Of a stretch of 41,107 nucleotides of DNA, positions 1-41,107 are shown one piece after another; position 1 is the stretch's first letter, and each line of letters begins with the position of its first letter. The stretch lies in the IMG/VR virus record IMGVR_UViG_3300045988_093172; one strand, given 5' to 3'. The DNA comes from a virus. The notes below the pieces were generated by a model. The model saw nothing but the letters and a program-made list of their open reading frames with translations, did no database searches and was not told where the DNA came from. The translations under genes and the position numbers were made by a program.

Positions 1-89
1 GAGTCACCATGGGCATCACCGTCGTCTTCGGTACGTCCGTTGCGACCATCTTCGGGGTCTTCCTTATCCCCATGATGTTCATCATCGTA
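1..89. repeat. Left copy of the 89-bp perfect direct repeat bounding the window (identical to 41019..41107). Candidate attL / attP core; alternatively terminal redundancy or a circular-assembly overlap.
   Basis: Read directly. Bases 1-89 (gagtcaccatgggcatcacc...gttcatcatcgta) recur exactly at 41019-41107, so the window starts and ends with the same sequence. The 3' end of the integrase gene lies 83 bp away. Confidence 0.95.
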
Positions 90-161
90 GAAACATTCGG
101 ACACAATAAGAAATCCTTTAGTGTGATGAAGGAAACTGTGGAAGATAAGCGCCTACATTAG
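3..161 (+). CDS. 3'-terminal fragment of a membrane transporter gene whose 5' end lies outside the window. The last TM helix resembles TM12 and the C-terminus of RND (AcrB/MexB-type) efflux permeases.
   Basis: Frame 3 is open from the window edge: VTMGITVVFGTSVATIFGVFLIPMMFIIVETFGHNKKSFSVMKETVEDKRLH, with stop TAG at 159-161. The pattern G..V..G...AT.....F..P..F..V followed by a charged tail matches my recollection of the AcrB C-terminus ([28 protein letters not shown]). The first 29 codons lie inside the 89-bp repeat. No search was possible. Confidence 0.45.
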   Translation, partial: VTMGITVVFGTSVATIFGVFLIPMMFIIVETFGHNKKSFSVMKETVEDKRLH

Positions 162-171
162 CACCTTTTGT

Positions 172-1239
172 CTACACGGGTAACGTCATGTGACACGTGG
201 GGAAGGAGTGTGTATAATACTTTAGGGTAGTCTCGATATTCGAGTGTCCCATAAGCATACTCACGGTCTTAACGTCCACATGGAATACCGTGATGAGCAA
301 GGTAGCATAGGTGTGTCTTGTGTCGTACAGATGGTGTCCCTTGGAACTCCCTAGTACGACTTCTACATACTTCTTAAAACGAACATTCACATTATCCTTA
401 CTTAGATAACCGTAGGTACTCTTCTCAGACCTGAAGATGCTTACGGTTTTCTTTTCGATTTTGTCTAATAACCACAGACCCCACTTTGTCTCTATGGGAA
501 CCTCCCGTATACTTGTGGGAGTCTTCATGGTTTCCTGTAGCTTGCCTTGGAATCCCAGTGACTTGTTGAAGGACACTCTGTCTTCCTTAATGTCTTCTCT
601 GGTTAAGGCAAGTATTTCCTGTGGTCTTGCTCCCGTAATAAAGGAAAGCACAATGTACACTTGGTATACCACAGGTAGGGTAGACAAATTCTCAATAGAT
701 AACAACTTCTGGACTTCCTCTAGGGAGAACACCTTCTTTTGTCTCTCTTGTCTTCCTTTTAACCTCCTTATGGCTTGTCGGGATTCCATAGGGTTGTTCT
801 CAAGATACCCTTCGAGTACCGCTGTTTCTAGGATAGCTTTAAAGTTTTTCCTCCAGCGATCTAGGGTAGTAGTGGCATAGCCCCTTGAGGATAACCCTAG
901 GAAAAACCGATTAATGTCCTGAGGTGTTAGGTCAGAGAACTTTATATGAGCTACCTTGCTGTTTTCTACATGTTTTCGATAGAATTGCTTTAGACCATTT
1001 AAGGTAGACTCACGGTATACTCCCGATTTAAGTTCCATGAAGTGTTCATAGTATTCTGCTACGGTAACAGGGGAGAAGTATTTGATGTCTTTCCCTTTGA
1101 TGTCCATGAAGAACTTCTGGCACTCCTCACGTGTATCAAAGGTTTTACTAACTCGCTTACCTCCTGATACGGTGATAGTGGCCTTGAATCTTCCATTGGG
1201 TCTCCTCACGATTGACCCTGTACCTTTGGTTCTTCTCAT
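172..1239 (-). CDS. int: Tyrosine recombinase / phage integrase (355 aa) with an arm-binding-type N-terminus
   Basis: The ORF track gives 172..1365. I place the start at ATG 1239 (MRRTKGTGSIVRRPNGRFKATITV...) because GGAGG lies 5 nt upstream. The N-terminus resembles the integrase arm-type DNA-binding domain. The C-terminus carries the catalytic signature HHLYDTRHTYATLL ... LMGHSNIETTLKYYTH (R..HxxR..Y). Confidence 0.9.
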   Translation of the reverse strand: MRRTKGTGSIVRRPNGRFKATITVSGGKRVSKTFDTREECQKFFMDIKGKDIKYFSPVTVAEYYEHFMELKSGVYRESTLNGLKQFYRKHVENSKVAHIKFSDLTPQDINRFFLGLSSRGYATTTLDRWRKNFKAILETAVLEGYLENNPMESRQAIRRLKGRQERQKKVFSLEEVQKLLSIENLSTLPVVYQVYIVLSFITGARPQEILALTREDIKEDRVSFNKSLGFQGKLQETMKTPTSIREVPIETKWGLWLLDKIEKKTVSIFRSEKSTYGYLSKDNVNVRFKKYVEVVLGSSKGHHLYDTRHTYATLLITVFHVDVKTVSMLMGHSNIETTLKYYTHSFPTCHMTLPV

Positions 1240-1481
1240 GTAACCTCCTTTCCTTTTCCTCATGTACTTTATGTATACCATGGATTTTGAAAAATTACAA
1301 AAAATTTCTGAGGACATACATGAATGAACAGCACACAGCAGTTCCCCCGTATACCCCTCAGTCATCCACAGTTACAATAATTGAACACTTGCTCATTTCT
1401 TCATATATCATTATGTTTTACATAACGGCACGTAGTACCATAAGTAACTCGTGTATCCGCATGGTTGAGCCATTTATAATA

Positions 1482-1515
1482 ACCCTGTTGCCTTAACGGT
1501 AGCGGGGTATTTTTT
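1482..1515 (+). terminator. Candidate plus-strand intrinsic terminator upstream of (antisense to) the int promoter region
   Basis: ACCCTGTTGCC-TTAAC-GGTAGCGGGGT forms an 11-bp stem if three G-U pairs are allowed. It is followed by ATTTTTT on the plus strand only. No plus-strand gene ends here. Confidence 0.35.
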
Positions 1516-1770
1516 CGATATATGAATGATTGCTCATACGTTATATATTTTTGAACATTTGTTCAATTAGGATTTTACAGTTGTTCAATGGATATTGCTT
1601 TAGGATATATTGATAAATTTCGATATATCTATATGTTTTTTCATGTATTACATATCTGTATAATACAGAACACTCATGTATTTCCACACACTATCACATA
1701 GGTAATACATGGCATACCTTCAGAATATTGCTATTACAAACTATATGAGTACCGCAATATTTATATAAAA

Positions 1771-2163
1771 TTACTTACGGAACCACACAATACAAACAGC
1801 ACCTAAAAGACAAATTGTTAAACCAACAACATAAATAGAAAGTATATCGACTTGTTTTTGTAGTCCTGTATTCTTCTTTATTATATCATTGATAGTCTTT
1901 GTATTTTTGTCTATCCTTGAACCTTGTAGTTCGTCCATTTGGACAGTATAAGACAATACCTCATCTAAACGTTGATTAGAAGTTAAAGCCTCGGGATTGA
2001 ATATACTTCCTTTGTGTGTGTCATTATACCATAGAACAAAGGCATTGTAACTACTACGATCCCATTTGTCTGATTTCCAGTCGTAAGCAAAGCCTAAAGA
2101 AAGATAAGATGAAAATAGGAAGAAGAGAAGTATAATTTTTAATGGGGAAAACATCTTATTCAC
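1771..2163 (-). CDS. Small membrane protein of the lysogeny module (130 aa; N-terminal signal/TM and C-terminal TM). Candidate lysogenic-conversion or superinfection-exclusion protein.
   Basis: The N-terminus MNKMFSPLKIILLFFLFSSYLSLGFA is hydrophobic, as is the C-terminus ILSIYVVGLTICLLGAVCIVWFRK. RBS GAGGTG lies before the ATG. The gene sits between int and the repressor on the same strand, separated from the repressor by a terminator. I recognise no homolog. Confidence 0.6.
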   Translation of the reverse strand: MNKMFSPLKIILLFFLFSSYLSLGFAYDWKSDKWDRSSYNAFVLWYNDTHKGSIFNPEALTSNQRLDEVLSYTVQMDELQGSRIDKNTKTINDIIKKNTGLQKQVDILSIYVVGLTICLLGAVCIVWFRK

Positions 2164-2202
2164 CTCAACTATATGTAATCTATGAGAATATTATATCAAA
2201 AA

Positions 2203-2253
2203 GGGAGGCACTTTAGAATACTCTTATTATCTAAAGTGCCTCCCTTTTTTTTT
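2203..2253. terminator. Bidirectional intrinsic terminator between the repressor gene and the membrane-protein gene
   Basis: A perfect 14-bp stem, GGGAGGCACTTTAG (2203-2216) / CTAAAGTGCCTCCC (2231-2244), is flanked by AAAAA on the left and a T9 run on the right. Confidence 0.8.
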
Positions 2254-2266
2254 ATTTTTACCACCT

Positions 2267-2464: not shown

Positions 2465-2484
2465 AAATTTTTCCTTCCTTCCTC

Positions 2485-3637: not shown

Positions 3638-3660
3638 TTAATTGTGCCACATAAAGAAGA
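3638..3660 (+). promoter_or_regulatory. Degenerate phage-promoter-like sequence TTAATTGTGCCACATAAAGAAGA
   Basis: 19 of 23 positions match the promoter consensus TTAATTGTCACACATACAGAGGA. It lies 15 bp upstream of the 3676 gene. Confidence 0.3.
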
Positions 3661-5447: not shown

Positions 5448-5468
5448 AATTGTCACACATTCTAGGAG
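5446..5468 (+). promoter_or_regulatory. Phage RNAP promoter, variant copy, directly upstream of the RNAP gene
   Basis: TTAATTGTCACACATTCTAGGAG shares the invariant TAATTGTCACACAT. It differs from the other copies in the initiation region (TTCTAGGAGG versus ACAGAGGA). The AGGAGG doubles as the RBS for ATG 5480. Confidence 0.75.
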
Positions 5469-5479
5469 GAGGAATAAAA

Positions 5480-8041
5480 ATGATGACATTAGAACAACAA
5501 TTAGAACTTGAAAAGATGTACAAAGGCTTAGCAGAAAATCGTGCTTTGCAGGTGTTGAACAAGGCAAAAGCTGACGGGGCCTATGAACGGACAAAGGTTG
5601 GTCAAGGTGTCATGAATCACCTAGCAGAAACCTATACGAAAAACGTAGAAGCCTTTGTTACAGACTGCTTACAGCCGAAACGTGGGGTTCAACCTGCATA
5701 CGCAAAAATCGTCAAGGACTACGTACTGGCCCTAGGTGGAGACACACAGAAATTTTCAAGACTCTGTGCTACTTTGTCTCTTAAAATGGCCCTTAGTGCC
5801 ATGATGAGACGTTCCCATGTAGCTAACAATATTGGGGGTGCAATCGGTCTTGAACTGGAACCAGAAGTAGAAGCAATGGCTTTCTTTGCAGACAAGAACA
5901 ATGTCAAGCGTTTTAACAAGGCCATTAGCTCCCGTGTAGGCTTTTCCTATCGTAGAATCTTCATGGAACATGTCTATGAAGGTGTTGGATTTACCTTTGT
6001 CAAGCATACAGCGAAAGAAAGAACGTCTTTAGGTATGCAGTTGTTAGCTGTCCTAGTGGAAACGACGGACTTCTTTGTCTTTCAAGAAGTATCTGAAGAT
6101 GGCAAGACACAGCCTTTACAGTTACTTCCTACAGATATCTTCTTAAAAGCGATAGCCAATGCAGAAGACAAGAGTATCAGCCTAGCTATTACGTATGTAC
6201 CGACTATCATCCCTCCGAAACCATGGACTAGCATGTGGGACGGGGGTTACTATGGGGCTTTGTCTCAGAATAAAACCTTAATGCGTTACATCCCCTATGC
6301 AAGGTCTTCACAGACACGCAAGTTATACACTAGTAGACTCAATGAACTTGATCTATCTAGTTTATACTCAGCTGTCAATGCGATTCAAGCAACGGCCTAT
6401 AGAATCAACAAACCCGTGCTGGACATTCTCAAGTATTACCTAAGTATCGGCGGTGGCATTGCAGGACTAGCAGAGACAAAACCACTTGAACAGCTTCCAC
6501 GGTTCCCTCATGCCTATGAAGACATTAAGGAAGATGAAGAACTACTCAAGGCGTTCAAGGCACACAAAAAGAAGATGGTAGAAGTTGTACACAAGGAAAA
6601 TCAGCGAAAAGGGAAAGCCCTGAGAGCTGTCATGATTCTGAAGACCGCTGAAGATTTTGCTAAGTATGACTCAATCTGGTTCCCCATGAACATTGACTTT
6701 CGGGGCCGTGTCTATCCGATTCCTACGGGTCTCAACCCTCAAGGGGACGACATGACAAAATCCTTATTACAGTACGCTAACCCCGTCCCTGTGTCTACTG
6801 AAGACGCTCCCGACGCTATCAATTGGTTAGCAATCCACGGGGCAGGACTGGCAGGTCACGACAAGATTCCTCTGGAAGACCGTGTAGCATGGGTAGAGGA
6901 AAACAAGCAGAACATTTTGTCTAGTGCTGAAAATCCGCTGGACTTCCCATGGTGGCAGGAGCAGGACAAGCCATGGCAGTTCTTAGCGTGGGCCATGGAG
7001 TACAAACGGGCCTTAGAATACCTTGACAGCCATGGAACCCTAGCAGGTTTTGACTGCCGTTGTACAATCGCTTACGACGGGACTTGCTCAGGACTCCAGC
7101 ATTACAGTTGTCTGCTCCGTGACCCTGTAGGCGGTTCCGCTGTCAACTTGATTGACCACGATAAACCTTCAGATATTTATAGAGAAGTTTCGGATAAGGT
7201 ATTGACAATGGTCAAGAAAGATGTTATGGAAGGAACCACAAAAGGCAAGGAACGAAAAGACGGCACATTTGGGCCAGGGACAAAGCAAATGGCAGAAGCA
7301 TGGCTGGCACATGGCATTAATCGGAAAGTGTGCAAGCGCCCCGTCATGACCCTAGCTTACGGGAGTGGTCAATACGGATTCGCTGACCAAATCTATGAAG
7401 ACACCACGAGGGACAACCCCCACTTTGCAGGTGTCGGGGATAGACAAGCCGCTCAGTACCTAGCTAAGTTGACATGGAAGGCTGTACAGACAACCGTTGT
7501 AGCCGCTATTGAAGGTATGGAATGTTTGAAGAAGATTGCCACGGCCCTTGCAAAAGCCGATATGCCTGTCGAATGGGTAACACCTATGGGGCTTCCAATT
7601 CAGCAGATGTATCTAGCACGAAAGACAGAATCTTTCCAGCTCCGCCTAGGAAATGCTTCTACACGCTACCGTATCTACGTAACGACGGTTAGCGAAAACG
7701 AGGATGTAGACAGACACAAGCAAGCAACAGGGGTAGCTCCCAATTTCATCCACTCCCTCGACGCTACTCACTTGATGATGAGCATTAATGAAGCAAGTAA
7801 AGAAGGGTGTGTGAACTTCAGTACCGTTCATGATTCTTTCGGAACGTCCCTCGGTGAAGCGGCTCGATTACGCCGTATTATCAGACAACAGATGGTTAAG
7901 TTGTACACGGAGCATGATCCCTTAGCGGATTTCCTGAGACACGCTGAAGAGCTGTTAGGGGAACCACTGGACATTGAACTTCCTAAAAAGGGTTCCTTAG
8001 ACATTAACTGTATCTTAGATAGCAAGTTCGTTTTTCACTAG
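5480..8041 (+). CDS. Single-subunit DNA-directed RNA polymerase (T7 gp1-like, 853 aa)
   Basis: YDGTCSGLQHYSCLLRD, KRPVMTLAYGS and TVHDSFGT match the T7 RNAP palm motifs FDGSCSGIQHFSAMLRD, KRSVMTLAYGS and VHDSFGT. Start placed at ATG 5480 (RBS AGGAGGAGG) rather than 5450, which lies inside the promoter. Confidence 0.97.
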   Translation: MMTLEQQLELEKMYKGLAENRALQVLNKAKADGAYERTKVGQGVMNHLAETYTKNVEAFVTDCLQPKRGVQPAYAKIVKDYVLALGGDTQKFSRLCATLSLKMALSAMMRRSHVANNIGGAIGLELEPEVEAMAFFADKNNVKRFNKAISSRVGFSYRRIFMEHVYEGVGFTFVKHTAKERTSLGMQLLAVLVETTDFFVFQEVSEDGKTQPLQLLPTDIFLKAIANAEDKSISLAITYVPTIIPPKPWTSMWDGGYYGALSQNKTLMRYIPYARSSQTRKLYTSRLNELDLSSLYSAVNAIQATAYRINKPVLDILKYYLSIGGGIAGLAETKPLEQLPRFPHAYEDIKEDEELLKAFKAHKKKMVEVVHKENQRKGKALRAVMILKTAEDFAKYDSIWFPMNIDFRGRVYPIPTGLNPQGDDMTKSLLQYANPVPVSTEDAPDAINWLAIHGAGLAGHDKIPLEDRVAWVEENKQNILSSAENPLDFPWWQEQDKPWQFLAWAMEYKRALEYLDSHGTLAGFDCRCTIAYDGTCSGLQHYSCLLRDPVGGSAVNLIDHDKPSDIYREVSDKVLTMVKKDVMEGTTKGKERKDGTFGPGTKQMAEAWLAHGINRKVCKRPVMTLAYGSGQYGFADQIYEDTTRDNPHFAGVGDRQAAQYLAKLTWKAVQTTVVAAIEGMECLKKIATALAKADMPVEWVTPMGLPIQQMYLARKTESFQLRLGNASTRYRIYVTTVSENEDVDRHKQATGVAPNFIHSLDATHLMMSINEASKEGCVNFSTVHDSFGTSLGEAARLRRIIRQQMVKLYTEHDPLADFLRHAEELLGEPLDIELPKKGSLDINCILDSKFVFH

Positions 8042-8050: not shown

Positions 8051-8104
8051 AGAAGGAAGTAAGTAGAGACAAAGGTCTTACCTCTTACTTCCTTCTTCTT
8101 TTTC
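8051..8104 (+). terminator. Intrinsic terminator after the RNAP gene
   Basis: AGAAGGAAGTAAG (8051-8063) pairs with CTTACTTCCTTCT (8084-8096) and is followed by TCTTTTT. Confidence 0.7.
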
Positions 8105-8124
8105 TATTAAGAACACCTGTTTGG

Positions 8125-8147
8125 CTAATTGTCACACATACAGAGGA
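8125..8147 (+). promoter_or_regulatory. Phage RNAP promoter
   Basis: CTAATTGTCACACATACAGAGGA, preceded by GTTTGG as at two other copies. Confidence 0.8.
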
Positions 8148-8151
8148 ACCC

Positions 8152-8233
8152 CCTAAGTATTCCTAAGTAACTAAAGGAAGACTAATTAGGTTTAAGTAGG
8201 AGTAAGTATAGTTAAGTATTCCTAAGTATTCCT
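8152..8233. repeat. Array of 10-bp-phased TAAGTA(T)TCC repeats between tandem phage promoters
   Basis: AAGTA starts at 8155, 8165, 8194, 8204, 8214 and 8224. The 13-mer CCTAAGTATTCCT occurs at 8152, 8221 and again at 40840. Confidence 0.7.
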
Positions 8234-8243
8234 AGGGCTGAGA

Positions 8244-8266
8244 TTAATTGTCACACATACAAGGAA
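8244..8266 (+). promoter_or_regulatory. Phage RNAP promoter
   Basis: TTAATTGTCACACATACAAGGAA. Confidence 0.8.
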
Positions 8267-8301
8267 AGAAAAACTACTACTACTCTACCTCTGTGTCTAT
8301 C

Positions 8302-8317
8302 CCAAACACATGTTTGG
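8302..8317. promoter_or_regulatory. Palindrome CCAAACA-CA-TGTTTGG abutting a phage promoter
   Basis: It ends one base before the promoter at 8318 and has the same CCAAAC-N4-GTTTGG geometry as 5430-5445. Confidence 0.5.
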
Positions 8318-8340
8318 TTAATTGTCACACATACAGAGGA
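8318..8340 (+). promoter_or_regulatory. Phage RNAP promoter (consensus copy)
   Basis: TTAATTGTCACACATACAGAGGA, identical to the copy at 40764. Confidence 0.85.
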
Positions 8341-8371
8341 AAGGACACAAAATTTTCAAGGAGGTAAGGAC

Positions 8372-8812
8372 ATGAGCAACCAGAAGAAAGTCTTACGTGA
8401 TTTTGAAATCGTCCGTGTAGATGTGCAGGATTTTGACCAGATTGAAGGCAATTATGCATACGGAGAAATCCTGAGGCACATGACAGACTTTTTTGGTGTC
8501 TTGTGCTATGAAGTGCGCTTGCGAGGGACTGATGTGTCTATCATTGTCAACTGGGACAAGGTGCAGAGAGTCGCAGAAGAAGACAACAAGCATGACAAGC
8601 ACTACTTAGAAGCTGTTGTAGAGCCTATCAAGGTCATGGAAAAGATGTTTACCAAAGAAGAACTTAAAGGCTTTATCAAAGGTAACATTTTGAAATACCG
8701 CTTACGCATGGGACACAAGGACGACATTCAGAAAGAAATGGATAAAATCCGTGTCTATGAGCAGTGGTTGGAGAAGCTGGAAAGAGGTGAAGCACTGATA
8801 GATGAGAACTAG
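8372..8812 (+). CDS. DUF3310-like domain protein (146 aa)
   Basis: The C-terminal half, HYLEAVVEPIKVMEKMF...GNILKYRLRMGHKD...KIRVYEQWL, fits the DUF3310 pattern (HY..EPI....gN..KY..R...K). RBS is AAGGAGG. Confidence 0.6.
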   Translation: MSNQKKVLRDFEIVRVDVQDFDQIEGNYAYGEILRHMTDFFGVLCYEVRLRGTDVSIIVNWDKVQRVAEEDNKHDKHYLEAVVEPIKVMEKMFTKEELKGFIKGNILKYRLRMGHKDDIQKEMDKIRVYEQWLEKLERGEALIDEN

Positions 8813-9308
8813 AAAACCTTTGTCTATCGTATTCAAACCCTTACGGGATGATATTGAAGTACCTCAAATCAAGACACAAGGTTCCGCAGGGGCAGACATT
8901 GTGATTCCCGACGATGTAACCATTGAGCCTTTTAGTCTTATTGGTAAGGGTACATTAGTTCCCTTGGGGTTCTCTTTAGATATTCCTGAAGGGATGCAAG
9001 TACATATCATGTTACGGTCAAGTGTTGGCTTGAAGACCCCTATCCGTTTGTCTAATGGTGTTGGTCTGATTGATTCAGATTACAAGGGCGAACTCTGCTT
9101 ACTACTTGATAATTTGTCTAAAAATTCAATTCACATCAAAAGTGGGACTCGAATAGCGCAATTAGTGCCGTTTCCTACCTTAAAGTGGGAGTTCGAGTTA
9201 ATTGTCACACATACAGGGGAAAGAAAGCATTTCAACCCTATCCAAAATACTAAGCGCAGTGGTGGCTTTGGGTCTACCACAAGAACAAAAGGAGACAAAA
9301 GCAAATGA
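8802..9308 (+). CDS. dut: dUTP diphosphatase (trimeric dUTPase)
   Basis: The five dUTPase motifs are recognisable: GSAGADI, LRSSVGLK, GLIDSDYKGEL, RIAQL and RSGGFGST. Confidence 0.9.
   Translation: MRTRKPLSIVFKPLRDDIEVPQIKTQGSAGADIVIPDDVTIEPFSLIGKGTLVPLGFSLDIPEGMQVHIMLRSSVGLKTPIRLSNGVGLIDSDYKGELCLLLDNLSKNSIHIKSGTRIAQLVPFPTLKWEFELIVTHTGERKHFNPIQNTKRSGGFGSTTRTKGDKSK
9198..9220 (+). promoter_or_regulatory. Phage RNAP promoter embedded in the 3' part of the dUTPase coding sequence
   Basis: TTAATTGTCACACATACAGGGGA, read as codons for ELIVTHTGE. Confidence 0.75.
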
Positions 9309-10317: not shown

Positions 10318-10683
10318 ATGTTTAAATTCAGAGACAGAGAAGAAACTCTCTTCTACTCCTTTGTCTATAAAGAACTCGAAGGAAGAACTGTCTCCGAACT
10401 GTTGAAGGAAGCACGAAGAAAAGGAGCGTTTTCGTTACCGTATCACGCTGTAGTTCTCAAGAATGGCGAACTCGACCTCATGCGTCCGTTTGAAGCAGTC
10501 GGGGGTAGCGAACTTCCTTATAGTGCTTGTGGCGTTTATATTCTCGTGGATGCTGAATCTAAAGAGTCCTTATCGGCTTTACAGAAGAAGCGACTGGACG
10601 ATTTAGTTCAGATGTTCCACGAGGACTATGCAGACATCGTAGAGGAAGAGTTCAACAAAGATGAATTACAGCGAACCGATTAA
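10318..10683 (+). CDS. Short T7 gp3.5 (lysozyme/amidase)-like protein (121 aa), possibly non-catalytic
   Basis: It aligns by eye to T7 lysozyme (FKFRDRE / FKQRES, PYHAVVLKNGE / GYHFIIKRDGT, AVGG / AVGS, GVYILV / GVCLVG). It has Y where T7 has zinc ligand H17 and ends before the C130 region. Confidence 0.5.
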   Translation: MFKFRDREETLFYSFVYKELEGRTVSELLKEARRKGAFSLPYHAVVLKNGELDLMRPFEAVGGSELPYSACGVYILVDAESKESLSALQKKRLDDLVQMFHEDYADIVEEEFNKDELQRTD

Positions 10684-12256
10684 GACACACCTCCCTTGCC
10701 CTGACTGTGGTTCCTCGGATGCCCTGACAGAATACAGTGATGGTCACACATACTGCTTCTCCTGTCAAACGGTACGAGGAGCTACAACACAGGGGACACA
10801 TACAGCCGACCTTATACCTCTCACTTCTTTGTCTATTACTCCTCTAAAGCGGCGTGGAATCATGTCTACCACATGTGAAAAGTACCACTACTATACAGGT
10901 TATCACAATGGGAAACCTGTGCAGGTAGCGTGTTACTTTGACGACGCAGGGGAGCTGATAGGCCAGAAAGTACGGTATCAAGACAAAACGTTTGAGACGA
11001 TTGGTAAAATTTCCAAGCGTTTCTTTGGTCAAGAGCTTTTTGAGAGTAGAGGCAAGCTGGTAATCACAGAGGGTGAGATTGATTGTCTCACTGTGTCACA
11101 ACTACAAAATAACAAATATCCCGTTGTGTCTATCCCTTGTGGGGTGGCCTCGGCAAAGAAAGTATTGACACACAACATGGAGTGGCTATCACAGTTTGAT
11201 GAGGTCATTTTGATGTTTGATATGGATGAAGCAGGAAGGAAGGCCATCAAGGAATGTGCTGGACTCCTGAAGGATTTGAAGGTGGCTAATTTACCACTGA
11301 AAGACCCTAATGAATGTCTATTAGCTAACAAAGGGCAGTCCGTCATCAATGCTATCTGGAACGCTAAAGCATACAAGCCAGACGGTATTGTAAACGGAGC
11401 TGACCTCTGGGAGATGGTAGACAGCGAAGAAGACGAAATGTGCTATACATACCCTTGGGATATTCCACTAAACGACATGACAAAGGGCCTCCGAAAGGGG
11501 GAACTCGTTGTCGTTACCGCAGGTACAGGGGTAGGCAAGACTACGTTTGTAAGACAAATCATGTATGACTTGGGGGTCAAGAAAAACCTCAAAGTAGGAT
11601 GTATGATGCTTGAGGAAAATGTAAAGCGCACCTCCGTGGGACTTATGTCTATACACACGGGAGTACGCTTGCACTTATCAAGACACGCTATCAGTGAAGA
11701 AGAGTATCGGAAGGCATTTGATGAGACACTGGGGACAGGAAACTACGTACTCTACAATCACTTTGGAAGTCTTGAGGGTGACAACTTACTAAACAAGATT
11801 CGATATTTAGCTATTTCTGAGGAGTGTGACTTCATCGTTCTCGACCATGTGTCTATTGCTATCTCTGGTTTGGAGGGGGACAATGAGCGAAAACTGATTG
11901 ACTACCTCATGACACAGATGAGAAGCATTGTAGAAGAGACAGGGGTGGGCATGATTGTCATATCACACTTGCGAAGACCTGACAACTCTCAGAAGTCTCA
12001 TGAAGAAGGTGGTATTACCTCGCTGGCACAGCTCAGAGGCTCCCACGCTATCTCACAGCTTTCAGACATCGTACTGGGGCTGGAAAGGAATCAGCAGGAG
12101 TCCAATGAAGAGCTGAGAAACACCACTCGTGTACGTGTCTTAAAGAACCGCTTCACAGGTGAGACTGGCATAGGAGGCTACCTGACATACAACAGAAAAA
12201 CAGATCGCTTGGAAATAGCAGAGAAGGAAGAAGATGATGATGAAGCAGAATTTTAA
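10661..12256 (+). CDS. Bifunctional primase-helicase (T7 gp4-like)
   Basis: Contains a zinc ribbon (CPDCGSSDA...CFSC), a TOPRIM motif (EGEIDCLT, FDMDEAG), a Walker A motif (GTGVGKTT) and a DnaB-like C-terminal domain (VLDHVS, ISHLRR). Confidence 0.95.
   Translation: MNYSEPIKTHLPCPDCGSSDALTEYSDGHTYCFSCQTVRGATTQGTHTADLIPLTSLSITPLKRRGIMSTTCEKYHYYTGYHNGKPVQVACYFDDAGELIGQKVRYQDKTFETIGKISKRFFGQELFESRGKLVITEGEIDCLTVSQLQNNKYPVVSIPCGVASAKKVLTHNMEWLSQFDEVILMFDMDEAGRKAIKECAGLLKDLKVANLPLKDPNECLLANKGQSVINAIWNAKAYKPDGIVNGADLWEMVDSEEDEMCYTYPWDIPLNDMTKGLRKGELVVVTAGTGVGKTTFVRQIMYDLGVKKNLKVGCMMLEENVKRTSVGLMSIHTGVRLHLSRHAISEEEYRKAFDETLGTGNYVLYNHFGSLEGDNLLNKIRYLAISEECDFIVLDHVSIAISGLEGDNERKLIDYLMTQMRSIVEETGVGMIVISHLRRPDNSQKSHEEGGITSLAQLRGSHAISQLSDIVLGLERNQQESNEELRNTTRVRVLKNRFTGETGIGGYLTYNRKTDRLEIAEKEEDDDEAEF
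10738..10760 (+). promoter_or_regulatory. Weak candidate internal phage promoter inside the primase gene
   Basis: TGATGGTCACACATACTGCTTCT shares the 11-mer GTCACACATAC with the promoter core, but the upstream AT-rich part (3 of 5) and the initiation region differ. Confidence 0.2.
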
Positions 12257-14882: not shown

Positions 14883-16274
14883 GTGTTAATATTCGACATT
14901 GAAACAGACGGTTTGCTGGAGGATATGACAAAAATTCACTGTATGTGTATCAAGGACACCAAAGAGAATAAAATGCACAGGTTTAGACCTGACGAAGTAG
15001 AAGCAGGGGTGCGGATGCTAATGAATGGAGACACGATTTGTGGTCATAATATCATTGCATTTGACATTCCTGCTATCTCTAAGGTGTTTCCATGGTTCCA
15101 TATAGGGAAAGAAAAAGTAGTAGACACGTTGGTCTATGCTCGGTTGGTATTCTCTGAGATTAATTACATTGACAACAAGCTCACTCGAACAGGTGTCTTG
15201 CCTTCACGACTCTACGGGTCACATTCCTTAAAGGCTTATGGTTATCGGCTGGGAGTCCTCAAAGGAACCTATGCGAGTGACTATGAGGCAGAGGATGTTT
15301 GGGCAGTCTTCAATGAAGAGATGCTGGACTACAATGAGCAAGACGTTGTCGTCACCGAAGCATTATATAACAAATGTCGCAAGAAGAAGACAACGGTACA
15401 GGCCCTTGATTTGGAACATAAGGCACAATGGTTGATGCAGAAGATGGAGCAGAATGGCTTTACCTTTGACATGACTAAGGCTAAAAAGCTATTGTCTATC
15501 ATTCTCACAGAGCAGGAAAAAGTGTTATCTAAGTTGGCAGACAAATGCCCTAAGATACCTGACAAAGTGTTTGTCCCTAAGAGAGACAATGCGAAGATGG
15601 GATATAAGAAAGGCGTTCCCATTCAGAGATACAAGGAGTTTAACCCCAACAGTCGACAGCAAATCCTGTGGATTCTGAAAGATCACTATGGATACCCGTT
15701 CGACAATGAGGACATGTGGAATGACAACGGGAATGTACAGTTGAACGAAGAGACATTTAAGCTCATTCAGAAAGACCCGAAGGCTTCTGAAGAAGTCAAG
15801 GAGTTGGCAGAGCTATTCTCTACTAACTTATTACTGACTAAACGATTAGGACAGCTCAGGGATGGTAAAAATGGCTGGATGAAACTGGTGTCTTCTGACG
15901 GCCGCTTACATGGGCGAGTGAATCCCAATGGGGCCATTACAGGCAGAGCGACACACTCTCACCCTAATATTGCGCAGGTTCCCCATGTAGGCTCTCCCTA
16001 TGGGGCTGAGTGCCGTGAGTTATTCACGGTTCCCGATGGATGGTTTCAGGCTGGCGTGGATGCCTGTGGTCTGGAACTTAGGTGTCTGTCCCACTACTTA
16101 TATCCTTTTGACAACGGAGAGTATGCACATGAGTGTGTTGAAGGGGACATTCACACGAAGAATCAGCTGGCCGCAGGATTGCCAGAGAGAAACATGGCAA
16201 AGACGTTTAACTATATGGGCGTCTATAAACTCATTGAAAACGGTGAAACTCCCTATGGGACAATACCGTGCTAA
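14883..16274 (+). CDS. DNA polymerase (family A, T7 gp5-like), N-terminal segment: 3'-5' exonuclease and polymerase domain up to motif B. The last ~20 codons read into an insertion.
   Basis: GTG start with AGGAG 7 nt upstream. The Exo I motif is FDIETDG. The sequence ...PERNMAKTFNY matches T7 RDNAKTFIY (K522..Y526); homology is then lost (MGVYKLIENG...stop). Confidence 0.9.
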   Translation: MLIFDIETDGLLEDMTKIHCMCIKDTKENKMHRFRPDEVEAGVRMLMNGDTICGHNIIAFDIPAISKVFPWFHIGKEKVVDTLVYARLVFSEINYIDNKLTRTGVLPSRLYGSHSLKAYGYRLGVLKGTYASDYEAEDVWAVFNEEMLDYNEQDVVVTEALYNKCRKKKTTVQALDLEHKAQWLMQKMEQNGFTFDMTKAKKLLSIILTEQEKVLSKLADKCPKIPDKVFVPKRDNAKMGYKKGVPIQRYKEFNPNSRQQILWILKDHYGYPFDNEDMWNDNGNVQLNEETFKLIQKDPKASEEVKELAELFSTNLLLTKRLGQLRDGKNGWMKLVSSDGRLHGRVNPNGAITGRATHSHPNIAQVPHVGSPYGAECRELFTVPDGWFQAGVDACGLELRCLSHYLYPFDNGEYAHECVEGDIHTKNQLAAGLPERNMAKTFNYMGVYKLIENGETPYGTIPC

Positions 16275-16902
16275 GTTAGATAGGAGGGAAGGTTATTACA
16301 AGAGAAGAATATCTCAATAAGCTAATATGGGATTTTAATAAACCTAAATCTGAACAGACAGCAAATCCAACTAAGTATCCTCAAGGGAAGTTCAAAAAGA
16401 AAAAATGTAAATGCTGTAAGAAAGAATTTTCTCCTAAAGCACCTTCTGAACTCTACTGTTCTGACTTCTGTAAGGCATATGGAATTACTGAAGCATATTA
16501 CATGAGAACATATGGTATTTCATTAAAGGAATATTTGGATATGGCTGAACAACAGAACTTTGTCTGTGCAATTTGTGGCAAACCAAACTTCCCCATGAAA
16601 AGTATCCATAGTGGATGTTTAGTTGTTGACCACAATCATAAAACAAATAAGGTTAGGGGACTTCTCTGTCATAACTGTAATCGCGCTTTGGGCTTGCTAC
16701 AAGATAATACAGAAACCCTAGAAAGTGCTATTAACTATCTAAAAAGTGTAACGACTATTCCGAAAGGAAGTACCCTCAAGTGAGGGGAAGTGGTGAGTAC
16801 CTACAAAGGTAAAGAGATAGTCTGTTCTCTATAGTAATATAGAGCAGTTCATAAGAGAACGCTATGAGAGTAACGACCTCATGGGAACACAAAAACATAT
16901 AT
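16215..16902 (+). mobile_element. Roughly 690-bp insertion splitting the DNA polymerase gene at motif B and carrying an HNH endonuclease ORF. Candidate group I intron or free-standing homing-endonuclease insertion.
   Basis: Joining 16214 to 16903 restores AKTFNY|GFLYGAGDAKIG, colinear with T7 AKTFIYGFLYGAGDEKIG. Both flanks share AAC(T/A)TATATGGG. The boundaries are inferred from protein homology only, and the canonical intron-terminal G is not present at that junction. Confidence 0.6.
16502..16783 (+). CDS. HNH homing endonuclease (endonuclease VII-like). The ORF is probably longer at its 5' end, open from 16280.
   Basis: CAICGK...LVVDHNHKTNKVRGLLCHNCNRALGLLQDN is the Endonuclease_7/HNH signature. 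The in-frame upstream sequence encodes a Cys-rich segment (KCKCCKKEF...YCSDFCKAYG). AGGAGG at 16282-16287 is followed 7 nt later by ATT at 16295. Confidence 0.85.
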   Translation: MRTYGISLKEYLDMAEQQNFVCAICGKPNFPMKSIHSGCLVVDHNHKTNKVRGLLCHNCNRALGLLQDNTETLESAINYLKSVTTIPKGSTLK

Positions 16903-17424
16903 GGGTTCCTCTACGGTGCAGGGGATGCAAAGATTGGAGAGATTGTTGGGGGTACAGCGGAGCATGGTGCAGAACTACGGAAGAAGTTCTTGAAAGCCAC
17001 TCCTGCTATTAAAAAGCTCCAACAGAGTGTTAAAAACCTTTTGTCTACATACAACGTGGAAATGAGACAAAGGGAGTGGAAGACACGTTATTTGAAGGGT
17101 TTGGATGGTCGCTTACTTTATACTCGGTCAATCCACAGTGCGCTGAATCTCTTGCTACAGTCGGCAGGGGCTATCGTCTGTAAATACTGGATTGTACGTA
17201 CAGAGGAACGCTTACTGAACCTTGGTTTAGATCATGGTAAGGATTTTCAGCTCATGGCATGGGTACACGATGAACAGCAGATTGCCTGCCGTACTGAAGG
17301 TATTGCTGAAATTGTCGTTAGAGAAGCCCAACAGGCTATGAGAGACACACAGCACTATTTCAACTTCAGGTGTCAATTAGATACTGAAGGTAAGATTGGT
17401 AAGAATTGGGCAGATTGCCATTAG
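16864..17424 (+). CDS. DNA polymerase (family A), C-terminal segment: rest of motif B and motif C
   Basis: ...IYGFLYGAGDAKIGEIVGG and AWVHDEQQIACR match T7 YGFLYGAGDEKIG and VHDEIQV. There is no convincing RBS before ATG 16864, so the true exon probably starts near 16903. Confidence 0.85.
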   Translation: MRVTTSWEHKNIYGFLYGAGDAKIGEIVGGTAEHGAELRKKFLKATPAIKKLQQSVKNLLSTYNVEMRQREWKTRYLKGLDGRLLYTRSIHSALNLLLQSAGAIVCKYWIVRTEERLLNLGLDHGKDFQLMAWVHDEQQIACRTEGIAEIVVREAQQAMRDTQHYFNFRCQLDTEGKIGKNWADCH

Positions 17425-34296: not shown

Positions 34297-35969
34297 ATAG
34301 TCAAAACTTGAAAGCGAGTGTCTCCTTTGTTGGGGATGGCACTACAAATAAATTTTACTTCGGGTTCGACTATATCAATAAGCAGTTCGTGAAGGTTCAA
34401 ATAGGTAATGAGGGGCAATCCCTCACCTATCCTTCCGACTATACTGTGGATGATAGAAGCGTCGTCCTGAAGGATACCCCTGCTGTGGGGGTGGCTATCA
34501 GGGTATATCGTGAGACTTCTTCAGATAGAATTGTTGAGTGGGCAGATGGTGCTTTTATTAAGGCTTCTCAGATGACACTGGAAAACTTACAGCAGTTACA
34601 CCTGATTGAAGAAGCTCAGGACTACCCTATACTAAACTCTTTGTCTACGTACCCTGATGGGGTTAACTTTAATGCTTTAGGTTCTCGTGTCATTAACGTA
34701 AGTGACCCCAAAGACCCTCAAGATGCCGTAACGAAGCATTACATGGAGAGCGTCCAGAATGGTTTTGTAGCGACCAATACAATCTTGGTACAGGAAGCAA
34801 CGAAGCAAGCGTCCGCCGCAAAGTCTTCTCAGGAAGTCGCTAAGACCTCGGAGACAAATGCAAAAACTTCGGAAACCAATTCTGAAATTTCTAATCAAAA
34901 AGCGAAGAAGTGGGCAGAAGCTACGGATTCTCCAGATGGTGAAGTGGATACGGATAGTACCACAGGGAAGACACAGAGTTCTAAAGAGTGGGCTTTGTAT
35001 AGCAAAACGAAGGCACAGGAAGCGGCAACGTCCGCAACGAACGCTAAGAGTTCTGAGACAAACGCAAAGACCTCTGAAACCAATGCGAAAACCTCGGAAA
35101 CCAATGCGAAGTCATCCGAAACGAAGGCAAAGACCTCAGAAACCAATGCAAAAACATCAGAAACTAATGCGAGTGCAAGTGCCTCTGCCAGTGCGTCTAG
35201 TGCTAGTGCGTCTGCTACGAGCGCCACTAATGCACATAATTCAGAGACGGCCGCCGCTAACAGTGCTAAACAGGCCGCAGAATCAGCAGGTGTCTTTCAG
35301 GACTTTAAGGGGAGCACATCGTCCGCAGATGGTCTTGGTGGTAAAGTTCCTAAACCTTTAGCAGGACAGCAGGAAAGGTATCTAAAAGCGGATGGCACAT
35401 GGAGTGACATTCCTAAATTAACCCCTAATACGCTGTGGGACACCATTCATTCTTATGGGAAGAACTATGTCCCTTCTGATACATCTAACGAAGGGTGGAA
35501 TAAATTAGGATTTGCTTCTATTTCTTACTCAGAGGTTAAGATTAATAATCAACCAAACCAGTATGGACAGCTTATTAATATTCCATACGATCAAGGAGCA
35601 GAGAGTACACAGTTGTGGTTAGATCAAGATACTGGTCTTATCCACTTTAGAGGGAGCAACGTAGCCGATATTGTGAATAATCTTCCCTTTAAAACTGTTG
35701 CTACTACAGATGATGTTAATGCCAGAGAAAAAGTGAATAGCCAAGGGGGCAACTGGATTCGGTATAAAAGTGGTTTACAACTTTGTTGGAACTCATGGAT
35801 TGATGCAGGTGCATGGTGGTCTTTCCCAGTTGCTTTTTCAGGGACTCCTGCTGTAACCATTACAGCTCGTACTGGTGATTGGCAGTGGGTTGATGGTCTT
35901 TCTAATACAGGCTTTACAAACAAGGGGAGTGGTGGTGCGTGTGCCATTGCAGTAGGAAGGTGGAAATAA
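34290..35969 (+). CDS. Tail fiber protein, with a T7 gp17-like N-terminal adaptor domain
   Basis: The N-terminus (FVGDGTTNKFYFGFDYINKQFVKVQIG...RVYRETSSDRIVEWADGAFIKASQMTLENLQQLHLIEEAQD) parallels T7 gp17 (LDGSNRDFNIPFEYLARKFVVVTLIG...[40 protein letters not shown]). The central region is repetitive and the C-terminal domain is unique. Confidence 0.9.
   Translation: MVNSQNLKASVSFVGDGTTNKFYFGFDYINKQFVKVQIGNEGQSLTYPSDYTVDDRSVVLKDTPAVGVAIRVYRETSSDRIVEWADGAFIKASQMTLENLQQLHLIEEAQDYPILNSLSTYPDGVNFNALGSRVINVSDPKDPQDAVTKHYMESVQNGFVATNTILVQEATKQASAAKSSQEVAKTSETNAKTSETNSEISNQKAKKWAEATDSPDGEVDTDSTTGKTQSSKEWALYSKTKAQEAATSATNAKSSETNAKTSETNAKTSETNAKSSETKAKTSETNAKTSETNASASASASASSASASATSATNAHNSETAAANSAKQAAESAGVFQDFKGSTSSADGLGGKVPKPLAGQQERYLKADGTWSDIPKLTPNTLWDTIHSYGKNYVPSDTSNEGWNKLGFASISYSEVKINNQPNQYGQLINIPYDQGAESTQLWLDQDTGLIHFRGSNVADIVNNLPFKTVATTDDVNAREKVNSQGGNWIRYKSGLQLCWNSWIDAGAWWSFPVAFSGTPAVTITARTGDWQWVDGLSNTGFTNKGSGGACAIAVGRWK
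35043..35168 (+). repeat. Six tandem 21-nt repeats encoding the heptapeptide AK(T/S)SETN inside the tail fiber gene
   Basis: AKSSETN AKTSETN AKTSETN AKSSETK AKTSETN AKTSETN. Two further units lie at 34839-34880, and an (S/A)n tract follows (35169-35228). Confidence 0.9.
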
Positions 35970-35970
35970 A

Positions 35971-36198
35971 ATGATAGGAACTAAACTATACAAACAAGAT
36001 TTAGACATCATTGAATATGAAAATACTTCTACATGGTGTAACAAAAATAATGCCATGTTGGTTGACAAGGGGGAATATTTTGAAGTAATTCCTTTTTCAG
36101 AAGACACAAAAGAACAGACCCCCTCTTTGTCTGAACGCATTGTGGTTCTTGAGGATGCAGTGAATACCTTAATGGAAGGAGTGGCTACGAATGGCTAA
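35971..36198 (+). CDS. Hypothetical protein (75 aa) downstream of the tail fiber gene
   Basis: ORF with RBS GGAAGGTGG. Its position suggests a fiber-associated or assembly role; I recognise no motif. Confidence 0.5.
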   Translation: MIGTKLYKQDLDIIEYENTSTWCNKNNAMLVDKGEYFEVIPFSEDTKEQTPSLSERIVVLEDAVNTLMEGVATNG

Positions 36199-38775: not shown

Positions 38776-38779
38776 TAGT

Positions 38780-39055: not shown

Positions 39056-40739
39056 AGCGGCTAAGAAAGACTTCAGGAAGTTCTTGTTTATCCTCTGGCA
39101 TGAGATAGCCCTTCCTGAACCGACAGACATACAGTATGCTATTGCGACACTCCTCATGAAATGCCCTGAGAAACGATATATCATTGAAGGGTTCCGTGGG
39201 GTAGCTAAGTCCTTCATTACTTGTGCTTATGTCGTATGGTCACTTTGGAATGACCCTCAACTGAAGTGTCTCATTATCTCTGCAAGTAAAGACAGAGCAG
39301 ATGCAAACGCCGTGTTTATCCGAAAGATAATCTACTTACTAGACTTTTTGTCTCACCTAAAACCTCGTGACGGACAGCGTAACACTCAGAATCTTTTTGA
39401 TGTTGGGGAAGCCGTAGCGGATATTTCCCCCTCTGTAAAGTCTGTTGGTATTACGGGTCAGATAACAGGTAGCCGTGCGGACATACTGATTGCGGATGAC
39501 GTAGAGATTCCCAATAATTCCAGTACACAGACACGGAGGGACAAGCTGTTTGAGGATGTTAAGGAATTTGATGCCATTATCAAGCCGGGGGATAGAAGTA
39601 AGGTTATATACCTCGGTACTCCGCAGAACGAAATGTCTCTGTACAATGAGCTTCAGAATCGTGGATATTCCTGCTATATTTTCCCGCTGGTATACCCTGA
39701 GACACCAGAAGAGCGTGAGTATTACGGGGACAAATTAGCTCCTTTTATTGCTACCCCTTACGACAAAAACCCTGCTCTGTATGCAGGAAAGCCGACTGAC
39801 CCTAGAAGATTCCCTGAAGAGGAAATTGAGGAACGTCGGCAGTCCTACGGTAAAGCAGGGTTTTCCTTACAGTTCAAACTGAATACGAACTTGTCTGACT
39901 ACGAAAAATATCCCCTGAAGACACAGGACTTGATTGTGTCTAATGTGGACATGGATGAAACCTCTTTGAAGTGGTCATGGTCAAGCGGTTATGAGTATCG
40001 TCTGAATGACCTCCCCTGTGTCGCCATTAAGGGCGACTTTTTCTATCGTGAGCATAGTAGAAGCCAGGAGACAGCTAAGTATACAGGATGTGTTATGGCT
40101 GTTGACCCTTCTGGTAGAGGTACTGACGAGACTGCCTACGCTATCGTGAAGTACCTGAATGGGTATCTCTTTGTAGTAGAAGTAGGAGGTTTTCAGGATG
40201 GTTACTCAGATGCCGTGTTGACACAGCTGGCTAACAAGGCTAAAATCCATGGAGTTAATGAGATTATCGTAGAAGCAAACTTTGGGGACGGTATGTTCAC
40301 TCAGCTATTCAAGCCTATCCTGACGAGTATTTACCCCTGTGCTGTACAGGAAGTGAAGAACACAGTACAGAAGGAAGCTCGTATTATAGACACCTTAGAA
40401 CCTGTTATGATGAGACACAAGATTATCATGACTGAGACAGTTATTCGTGATGATTACAGCGTGTATGAGGAAAAGGGACAGAAATATTCGCTGATTTACC
40501 AGATGACCCGTCTGAGTAGAGATAGGGGTTCATTGGCACACGATGACCGCTTAGATGCCCTGACTATGGCTGTGTCTTACTGGTTGGATGTCATGGATAG
40601 AGATTACCAGACTGGACTGGATGAACAGTTAGAAGAATTTCTGGAGACAGCTCTGGATGATGATCGGGGTCTGTTCTCTATGATGTATGGAGAAGTAGAA
40701 GATAGTAGTAATAGGAACATCATGAAGAAAAAATGGTAA
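39024..40739 (+). CDS. Terminase large subunit, T7 gp19-like
   Basis: FRGVAKSFITCAYVVWSLWNDPQLKCLIISASKDRADANAVFIRK, SVGITGQITGSRADILIADDVEIPNNS, VIYLGTPQNEMSLYNEL and LAHDDRLDAL closely parallel T7 gp19. GTG start at 39024. Confidence 0.95.
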   Translation: MQVQWTPEQIEAAKKDFRKFLFILWHEIALPEPTDIQYAIATLLMKCPEKRYIIEGFRGVAKSFITCAYVVWSLWNDPQLKCLIISASKDRADANAVFIRKIIYLLDFLSHLKPRDGQRNTQNLFDVGEAVADISPSVKSVGITGQITGSRADILIADDVEIPNNSSTQTRRDKLFEDVKEFDAIIKPGDRSKVIYLGTPQNEMSLYNELQNRGYSCYIFPLVYPETPEEREYYGDKLAPFIATPYDKNPALYAGKPTDPRRFPEEEIEERRQSYGKAGFSLQFKLNTNLSDYEKYPLKTQDLIVSNVDMDETSLKWSWSSGYEYRLNDLPCVAIKGDFFYREHSRSQETAKYTGCVMAVDPSGRGTDETAYAIVKYLNGYLFVVEVGGFQDGYSDAVLTQLANKAKIHGVNEIIVEANFGDGMFTQLFKPILTSIYPCAVQEVKNTVQKEARIIDTLEPVMMRHKIIMTETVIRDDYSVYEEKGQKYSLIYQMTRLSRDRGSLAHDDRLDALTMAVSYWLDVMDRDYQTGLDEQLEEFLETALDDDRGLFSMMYGEVEDSSNRNIMKKKW

Positions 40740-40758
40740 TTGTCACACATATATACAA
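40736..40758 (+). promoter_or_regulatory. Phage RNAP promoter, variant copy overlapping the terminase stop codon
   Basis: GTAATTGTCACACATATATACAA. The invariant 14-mer is present but the initiation region is divergent. Confidence 0.65.
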
Positions 40759-40763
40759 AGTCG

Positions 40764-40786
40764 TTAATTGTCACACATACAGAGGA
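40764..40786 (+). promoter_or_regulatory. Phage RNAP promoter (consensus copy) at the extreme right end, pointing toward the 89-bp repeat
   Basis: TTAATTGTCACACATACAGAGGA, identical to 8318-8340. Its position is equivalent to T7 phiOR. Confidence 0.85.
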
Positions 40787-40801
40787 AAGCAGAGGAAAAC
40801 T

Positions 40802-40882
40802 AAAGTATATCTAAGTATTTCCTCTGTTCCTCTAGTATACCTAAGTATTCCTTAGTATTACAGTTAGGAGTCCTTTAGTATC
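40802..40882. repeat. 10-bp-phased (T/A)AGTAT repeats downstream of the right-end promoters
   Basis: AGTAT starts at 40804, 40814, 40834, 40844, 40854 and 40877. The array contains the 13-mer CCTAAGTATTCCT (40840-40852), shared with the 8152-8233 array. Confidence 0.7.
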
Positions 40883-40887
40883 CTAAA

Positions 40888-40958
40888 GAACCCCGAACCT
40901 TAGGAACTCAAAGGGAACACAACTGGAACCCTAAGAGAACTCCGTAGGAACTCACTAA
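40888..40958. repeat. 11-bp-phased GGAAC/GAGAAC repeats next to the 89-bp repeat
   Basis: GAAC starts at 40888, 40895, 40904, 40915, 40926, 40937 and 40948; the last five are exactly 11 bp apart. Units are TTAGGAACTCA / AAGGGAACACA / ACTGGAACCCT / AAGAGAACTCC / GTAGGAACTCA. Confidence 0.7.
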
Positions 40959-41018
40959 GGAAAAGCACCAACAACTACACCTAACTACCTCCTATAAAGA
41001 ACTACTAAGAGGAACCCA

Positions 41019-41107
41019 GAGTCACCATGGGCATCACCGTCGTCTTCGGTACGTCCGTTGCGACCATCTTCGGGGTCTTCCTTATCCCCATGATGTTCAT
41101 CATCGTA
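41019..41107. repeat. Right copy of the 89-bp perfect direct repeat (candidate attR / attP core)
   Basis: Identical to 1-89. The transporter-like frame is closed by TAA at 41006-41008, 4 codons upstream of this copy, so the coding-looking sequence starts essentially at the repeat boundary. Confidence 0.95.

Follow-up and report, generated by a model that had tools for sequence, protein, structure and literature searches.

A five-base word under purifying selection across a T7-like gut prophage, a candidate start site for its primase

Introduction

Why would a phage genome carry one short DNA word hundreds of times, on both strands and regardless of how its genes run? The IMG/VR virus record IMGVR_UViG_3300045988_093172 raises this question. 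We analysed the whole stretch of 41,107 nucleotides, referred to here as the window. Judged by its sequence, the window is a complete prophage of a temperate phage with the gene order of a T7-like podovirus, hosted by a human-gut bacterium. An earlier note, based on a manual scan of the letters, had reported a large excess of the heptamer TTTGTCT and proposed that it may be the preferred start site of the phage primase. Here we show that the pentamer TGTCT is kept by purifying selection at about 333 places, and that this is specific to the phage lineage. We then weigh what might read the word, with the phage's own primase as the leading candidate.

Results

TGTCT is over-represented on both strands

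Exact counting on the plus strand finds 53 copies of TTTGTCT, where an order-0 (base composition) model expects 2.5, and 42 copies of the complement AGACAAA, where it expects 4.8. The manual scan had put the first word at about 53 copies, which is confirmed, and the second at about 35, which is too low. The TTTGTCT positions it listed are correct except for two, which lie at 460 rather than 470 and at 25744 rather than 25745. GTGTCT, scanned at about 58 copies against roughly 9 expected, occurs exactly 58 times (8.5 expected by order-0), and its complement AGACAC 60 times (10.3 expected).

These longer words are enriched because they hold a TGTCT core together with a preferred upstream context, T and then G or T, so that the favoured form is TKTGTCT. 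TGTCT/AGACA is the top over-represented 5-mer of the window. It occurs 333 times over positions 1–41107, counting both strands, as 155 TGTCT and 178 AGACA on the plus strand, or about 4.05 sites per kb per strand. Composition expects 35 and 52, respectively.

Two null models take account of coding content. The first shuffles synonymous codons within each gene, keeping the protein and its codon usage; the second is the same shuffle with dinucleotide counts also kept. The first gives 59.9 ± 6.1 TGTCT (z = 15.5), 90.9 ± 7.4 AGACA (z = 11.7) and 8.3 ± 2.3 TTTGTCT (z = 19.6). The second gives 84.8 ± 6.7 TGTCT (z = 10.5), 120.2 ± 7.5 AGACA (z = 7.7) and 16.7 ± 2.7 TTTGTCT (z = 13.6). Neither null reproduces the counts, which bears out the earlier view that codon preference is insufficient to explain them.

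The excess is narrow. The trinucleotide GTC is barely above the codon null (511 versus 482, and 755 versus 710). Among the 16 NGTCN words, TGTCT alone is enriched, at 2.2x over the codon null, and GGTCT stands at 1.03. Among the 16 NNGTC words, enrichment is seen only for GTGTC (2.0x) and TTGTC (1.7x). The base just 5' of GTC is always T in the core, and the base before that is G or T in 73–77% of sites.

TGTCT is present in all three reading frames and both orientations. The earlier note had seen at least two frames and had placed the word inside the minus-strand integrase region as well, where TTTGTCT indeed lies at 460, 485 and 738. On the sense strand the word is used at 142 of the 386 positions that the protein permits (48 expected), and on the antisense strand at 182 of 463 (86 expected), so that about 37% of permitted positions carry it in sense and about 39% in antisense. 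Val-Ser is written GTG-TCT in 30 of 62 instances, where 4.6 are expected. Together, the two shuffles and the frame analysis reject codon usage, codon pairs and dinucleotides as the cause.

Sites are spread evenly, uniform in 2-kb bins and with Poisson-like spacing (coefficient of variation 0.91). Spacing analysis of the whole window found no favoured distance between site pairs, which rules out paired half-sites and periodic arrays. Enrichment is mildly higher on the plus strand (2.6x versus 2.0x). The longest stretches free of TGTCT, at 1086–1808, 16561–17042 and 35291–36003, correspond to the 5' part of the integrase gene with the region upstream of it, a homing-endonuclease insert and the C-terminal region of the tail fibre, all of them segments that were likely acquired or exchanged recently.

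The pentamer is conserved at synonymous positions

Constraint was measured in 37 variants that are 86–99.9% identical to the window, with the same codons outside the word as the expectation. Inside the word, 120 synonymous third positions are polymorphic versus 193 expected, and summed synonymous divergence is 26.4 versus 55.7. Base by base, the ratio of observed to expected divergence is 0.77 for the first T, then 0.39 (G), 0.57 (T), 0.47 (C) and 0.38 (T). It is about 1.0 in the flanks, at −6 to −1 and at +5 to +10. Because the footprint is limited to five bases, the unit under constraint is the pentamer. The earlier note had proposed TTTGTCT as the selected word, and this does not hold; the upstream T-K is a compositional preference with no detectable footprint of constraint. 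The one-mismatch neighbours GGTCT, TGTCC and AGTCT, with their complements, show no constraint, and TGTCA shows weak constraint. Copies on the plus strand are somewhat more constrained than those on the minus strand (0.38 versus 0.56).

The enrichment belongs to the phage

A phage-to-host junction is available in contig L014, at the attachment (att) core. On the phage side, with a GC content of 44%, there are 97 sites versus 26.7 expected. On the host side, 7.7 kb at 57% GC, there are 11 versus 12.6 expected. The switch in density falls exactly at the att core, and other host flanks hold 2–4 sites per 2 kb. The host sample, made up of such flanks, is small. The enrichment is a property of the phage and not of the host. 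A compositional signature of the host genome, which the earlier note had raised as a trivial explanation, is ruled out by these flanks. A search with the endolysin gene for unrelated phages of the same host returned the T7-like family only.

Related phages carry TGTCT or sister words

We scored 79 IMG/VR loci, found via the primase, with the codon null. TGTCT enrichment recurs in related gut T7-like phages, down to about 50% primase identity, over a GC range of 35–48% and with at least one different pattern of restriction-site avoidance. L013, a Megasphaera relative with a GC content of 39%, whose aligned codons are about 66% identical at the nucleotide level, does not avoid CCGG and has 188 TGTCT sites versus 74 under the codon null.

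The enriched words differ by clade. In clade A (primase at least 77% identical; L024–L041 and L055) TGTCT is enriched about 2x and GGTCT is at about 1.0. In clade B (primase about 65% identical; L042–L052 and L071) TGTCT and GGTCT are each enriched 1.7–2.2x, together with GTCTT, and in three loci GGGTC ranks within the top three words. Clade C, from the gut (primase about 50% identical; L056–L068), has TGTCT at 1.6–2.2x. In the single locus L053, GGTCT and GGTCA are enriched. Distant loci, among them L063, L091 and L101, have nothing comparable, nor does T7 (L103) at such a level. Over 15 representatives besides the window, many of them interrelated, TGTCT ranks second and GGTCT third of 512 words by mean z.

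A distant clade of T7-like phages (L081, L083, L085, L086 and L087) has TCTGG/CCAGA at about 1.6–1.95x over the codon null on both strands. Primase identity for this clade is about 49–50%. TCTGG may be a second, different clade-specific word. In a scan of SP6, a control with a different primase site (probably GCA), words containing TGCA rank 6th, 10th and 12th; TGCA itself is a palindrome.

The primase and its T7 counterpart

The phage encodes a gp4 homologue, as the earlier note had said. This gp4-type primase-helicase (10661–12256, plus strand) carries the Pfam domains Helic-prim_T7_N, Toprim_2 and DnaB_C. Its alignment with T7 gp4 covers 533 positions at 42% identity. Its Cys4 zinc-binding domain (HLPCPDCGSSDALTEYSDGHTYCFSC; 10688–10774, plus strand) was located by pairwise alignment with T7 and by an alignment of relatives. 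It keeps the equivalents of T7 Cys17, Cys20, Asp31, His33, Cys36 and Cys39, reading CxxC...SDGHTYCFSC, with SDGH aligned to T7 Asp31 and His33. In the T7 primase, these last two residues take part in GTC recognition. Zinc fingers were compared across relatives in a 22-sequence alignment. The His33 equivalent is lost in L054 (Gln), L065 (Ser) and L086 (Ser), and none of the three shows KGTCT enrichment. L086 is the one aligned member of the L081–L087 clade, which has TCTGG instead. Such covariation of zinc finger and word, seen in aligned sequences, is suggestive.

The T7 primase makes functional primers at sites of the (G/T)(G/T)GTC class (PMC2910064, PMC12839067). GTGTC and TTGTC fall within this class, and all enriched words in the window and its sister clades have the form (G/T)GTC-T or (G/T)(G/T)GTC. 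Binding by the T7 primase gains up to 10-fold from G/T-rich flanks (PMC6136900), recognition is optimal only if one or more nucleotides follow the cryptic C on its 3' side (PMC2910064), and the first 3' base modulates binding, with A the best (PMC12839067). These three results fit a word with T on either side of GTC.

In the T7 genome, GGGTC, TGGTC and GTGTC together occur 161 and 159 times versus 116 and 129 expected under the same codon null, about 1.3-fold. Of the 16 NNGTC words, these functional sites hold ranks 1, 3 and 5. At 4.01 per kb per strand they are about as dense as TGTCT in the window (4.05). The two systems are thus alike in the GTC core, in the class membership of GTGTC and TTGTC, in the zinc-finger motif, in T/G-rich flanks and in site density. 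They differ in that the window favours the T-GTC form only. Its GGTC forms are not enriched, and these include GGGTC, the preferred template of the T7 primase (PMC11109968). They also differ in strength, 1.3x in T7 versus 2.2x in the window, and the window adds a clear footprint of purifying selection.

Promoters and putative origins

A 24-nt phage-promoter-like sequence, TAATTGTCACACATACAGAGGAAA, is found at 5447, 8126, 8245, 8319, 9199, 40737 and 40765, with a weaker copy at 3639. The copies are presumably read by the phage RNA polymerase, a single-subunit enzyme encoded at 5450–8041. An excess of ATTGTCA under a maximal-order Markov model arises from these copies. TGTCT as part of the phage promoter is ruled out, as TAATTGTCACACATACAGAGGAAA contains TGTCA and has only 7–8 copies.

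Three of the copies (8126, 8245 and 8319) flank A+T-rich 10-nt iterons at 8092–8353 (plus strand). This cluster lies directly downstream of the RNA polymerase gene, as does the primary origin of T7, and by that analogy it is a putative primary replication origin. A second cluster at the right end, 40737–40860 (plus strand), has two promoter copies with AAGTATTCCT iterons and is a possible second origin. In both clusters the iterons are tandem, 10 nt long and A+T-rich (AAGTATTCCT / CCTAAGTATTCCTAAGTA).

Other features of the prophage

The window is bounded by an exact 89-nt direct repeat, the attL core at 1–89 and the identical attR core at 41019–41107 (both plus strand). The core has a host-like GC content of 54% and codes for a hydrophobic protein C-terminus (...GITVVFGTSVATIFGVFLIPMMFIIV); the phage was therefore inserted in a protein-coding gene of the host, at its 3' end. 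That gene thereby gains a new C-terminal tail from the phage, which ends at 161. The window has no tRNA gene.

By gene order and annotation, the integrase gene and a helix-turn-helix (HTH) repressor-like gene stand at the left end on the minus strand. After the RNA polymerase come a dUTPase-like protein, a gp2.5-type single-stranded DNA-binding protein, endonuclease I, the primase-helicase, the NrdG/NrdD anaerobic ribonucleotide reductase, a family-A DNA polymerase, ThyX and a 5'-3' exonuclease. The portal, capsid, tube, nozzle and internal virion proteins are next, and then the tail fibre, a holin, an endolysin, a Dam-family methyltransferase and terminase. The methyltransferase, a predicted adenine methyltransferase of 151 aa (PF05869; 38320–38775), directly precedes the small terminase gene in a GATC-depleted genome, which has 27 GATC on the plus strand versus 153 expected.

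Other restriction-type sites show extreme avoidance too, counted on both strands together: CCGG (10 versus 185 expected), CGCG (8 versus 185), GCAGC/GCTGC (0 versus 52), GGACC/GGTCC (1 versus 52) and CCAGG/CCTGG (5 versus 52). Some 20 palindromic hexamers are missing altogether, among them AGTACT, ATCGAT, CTCGAG, CTGCAG, GACGTC, GAGCTC, GCATGC, GGATCC, GGTACC, TCTAGA, TGATCA and TTCGAA.

An identical capsid protein was found in 364 blocks of the assembly index, and the contigs examined, up to 285 kb long, are human-gut metagenome assemblies; this is therefore a common integrated phage. Megasphaera sp. AM44-1BH carries a relative whose capsid protein is 84% identical. Megablast found no close relative among GenBank phages, and the closest portal proteins, about 55% identical, are those of Teseptimavirus-like phages. 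In one 87-kb viral contig, IMGVR_UViG_3300044857_000313 (L118 and L121), the endolysin region appears twice, with about 43 kb between the copies. Their identity to the window is 95% and 85%, a pattern that points to a pair of related T7-like prophages, in tandem or close to each other.

Several genes vary in structure. The DNA polymerase gene (14883–17424) is split into parts of 463 and 186 aa by an insert that holds an open reading frame (ORF) for an endonuclease VII-type homing endonuclease (16502–16783). In a comparison that took in L002, L004 and L007, several variants have an unsplit 617-aa DNA polymerase. A similar interruption, by a 238-aa ORF, is found in the NrdD gene of L002 and L007. 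The tail-fibre gene contains tandem 21-nt repeats at 34797–35168, which encode a seven-residue repeat, roughly A-K-T-S-E-T-N.

Discussion

The best supported mechanism, which we favour tentatively from sequence comparison, is that the phage's gp4-type primase starts by preference at TGTCT. The zinc finger would recognise 5'-GTC-3' on the single-stranded template, and both bases next to it would have to be T, the 5' one being copied and the 3' one lying beyond the cryptic C. Primers would start with pppACA, as ACAC or ACAA in the favoured contexts GTGTCT and TTGTCT. This specificity would be narrower than that of T7, with a chance supply of only about one site per kb per strand. A primase that accepts the pentamer alone would meet too few chance sites, and we propose that the genome compensates for this, synonymous-site selection lifting the density to about 4 per kb on each of the two strands. 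The earlier proposal of a preferred primase start site thus keeps its support from the site class, the zinc finger and the words of the sister clades. Its heptamer gives way to TGTCT, and the near-equality of the strands tells against it.

That near-equality is the first of several points that weigh against the primase. As the earlier note had remarked, there is no strand switch at the putative origin near 8.2 kb, and we find none elsewhere in the window. A simple single-origin lagging-strand model predicts polarity, so the symmetry counts against such a model. Two promoter–iteron clusters and concatemer replication could reconcile the symmetry with priming at TGTCT. Leftward forks from 40737–40860 would take the minus strand as lagging-strand template, and forks running both ways from the two clusters, plus concatemers, would affect both strands. 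The second point concerns need. T7 requires one primer per 1–6 kb and uses few of its sites, and with an enrichment of just 1.3-fold in T7, site density as a selected trait is no established principle. Third, the relatives are not uniform. L063, L091 and L101 are T7-like with the SDGH motif intact and show little enrichment, and the covariation of zinc finger and word draws on three or four clades, where phylogeny confounds it. Finally, the T that follows the cryptic C is under the same constraint in the window as the G and the C, and the classical T7 site does not include it. A strict 3' T is an extrapolation, since T7 prefers A there (PMC12839067).

Strand symmetry would be explained more simply by a reader of duplex DNA that works in either orientation. 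TGTCT could then be the asymmetric word of another phage-encoded double-stranded DNA factor conserved in the lineage, for example an abundant DNA-binding or coating protein, a modification enzyme that marks the phage's own DNA, or a nuclease for which the word is either protective or required. We consider this unlikely, although it is the strongest of the alternatives. It agrees with the similar use of both orientations (37% versus 39%), the even spread without polarity and the sharp 5-bp footprint, which is typical of a protein recognition site. Lineage-restricted genes also track the enrichment, namely those without assigned function at 10318–10683 and 19563–20054 and those for a DUF3310 protein (8372–8812) and the dUTPase-like protein (8802–9308), but this correlation of gene presence is confounded with phylogeny. 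The encoded Dam-family methyltransferase could be such a factor. Its homologues in other phages (52–66% identity) come without the enrichment, however, with observed/expected ratios of 0.2–1.4 in 45 loci, and we reject the link. No candidate with a known match to TGTCT was found among the annotated genes, though such an absence is weak evidence. A separate factor would also leave unexplained why the words of the window and of its sister clades all fall in the T7 primase class.

Somewhat less likely still is an origin without selection, through context-dependent mutation or through biased repair or gene conversion by the phage's replication and recombination machinery. Acting on duplex DNA, such a process would be symmetric between strands and blind to frame, and the enrichment is symmetric, frame-independent and uniform. 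Biased repair would explain the symmetry more simply than priming does. The signal is absent from host DNA, which host enzymes alone replicate. The word-poor homing-endonuclease insert (16561–17042) and tail-fibre C-terminal region (35291–36003) look as if foreign DNA were being converted slowly. But the specificity, about 10 bits, is far above known context effects of polymerases or deaminases. Low divergence inside the words, with one-mismatch neighbours at about 1.0, is the pattern expected of purifying selection, although biased repair could mimic it. No gene for Vsr-like or other mismatch-specific repair was found among the annotated genes, and the prophage retains the signal although the host replisome copies it as well. 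Very-short-patch repair in E. coli is a precedent for an oligonucleotide distortion that is strand-symmetric and frame-blind without selection at each site. It acts at a palindromic methylation site of the host, whereas TGTCT is not a palindrome, and neither a comparable repair gene nor a methylated cytosine context is evident here.

A word for interaction with the host is improbable. This could be a Chi-like word that tames AddAB or RecBCD on linear phage DNA, or one that escapes or exploits a host defence. Short asymmetric Chi words of 5–8 nt are known in Firmicutes, no homologue of the T7 RecBCD inhibitor gp5.9 was noticed among the annotated genes, and a linear genome protected from both ends would need both orientations. 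However, Chi is normally over-represented in the host, and the 7.7-kb flank has no excess. Chi also differs between genera, and TGTCT is common to relatives with GC contents of 35–48% and, in L013, a different avoidance pattern; these relatives probably have different hosts. A few sites near the ends would suffice, so that 333 evenly spread sites are not required. The orientation bias expected of Chi- or uptake-like words is also missing, with 155 versus 178 copies and uniform 2-kb bins.

A by-product of coding, arising from amino-acid content, codon usage, codon-pair preference or compensation for avoided restriction sites, is very improbable even in a window that is 96% coding, favours the codons TCT, ACA and GAC and avoids many palindromes, for the shuffles that keep protein, codons and dinucleotides leave z at 8–14, the excess spans all three frames in sense and antisense, the alternatives to GTG-TCT for Val-Ser seemingly create no avoided site in general, and T7 and the host flank lack the bias.

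The selected word invites comparison with Chi, with the uptake sequences of transformable bacteria (USS/DUS) and with the FtsK-orienting polar sequences (KOPS). Each is a short asymmetric word, dense in coding DNA through largely synonymous choices and read by a DNA-processing machine. Those words are owned by the cell, and Chi and KOPS are polarised with replication; TGTCT is confined to the phage and has almost no polarity.

If the primase is indeed the reader, a broader proposition opens, which we hold with more doubt. T7-like phages may shape their genomes synonymously, on both strands, with the exact start word of their primase at about 4 sites per kb per strand. The words would then differ by clade, with TGTCT here, TGTCT joined by GGTCT and GGGTC in the sister clades, a weak preference for GGGTC, TGGTC and GTGTC in T7, and TCTGG in L081–L087. 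Words selected across a whole genome that belong to the virus rather than the cell would be a new class, and the primase specificity of uncultured phages would be predictable from genome statistics alone. Our literature search found work on T7 primase specificity and nothing on genome-wide enrichment of primase sites. To our knowledge, this would be the first known case of a replication-priming signal sculpting a whole viral genome. It would also bear on how active priming sites in T7 are selected among about 1,300 GTC trinucleotides, an open question for that phage (PMC6136900, PMC8599759, PMC12839067). Whatever the reader, a 5-bp word that purifying selection maintains at about 330 sites in 41 kb is a strong functional signal. 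It would matter for the recoding and engineering of such phages and for models of synonymous-site evolution.

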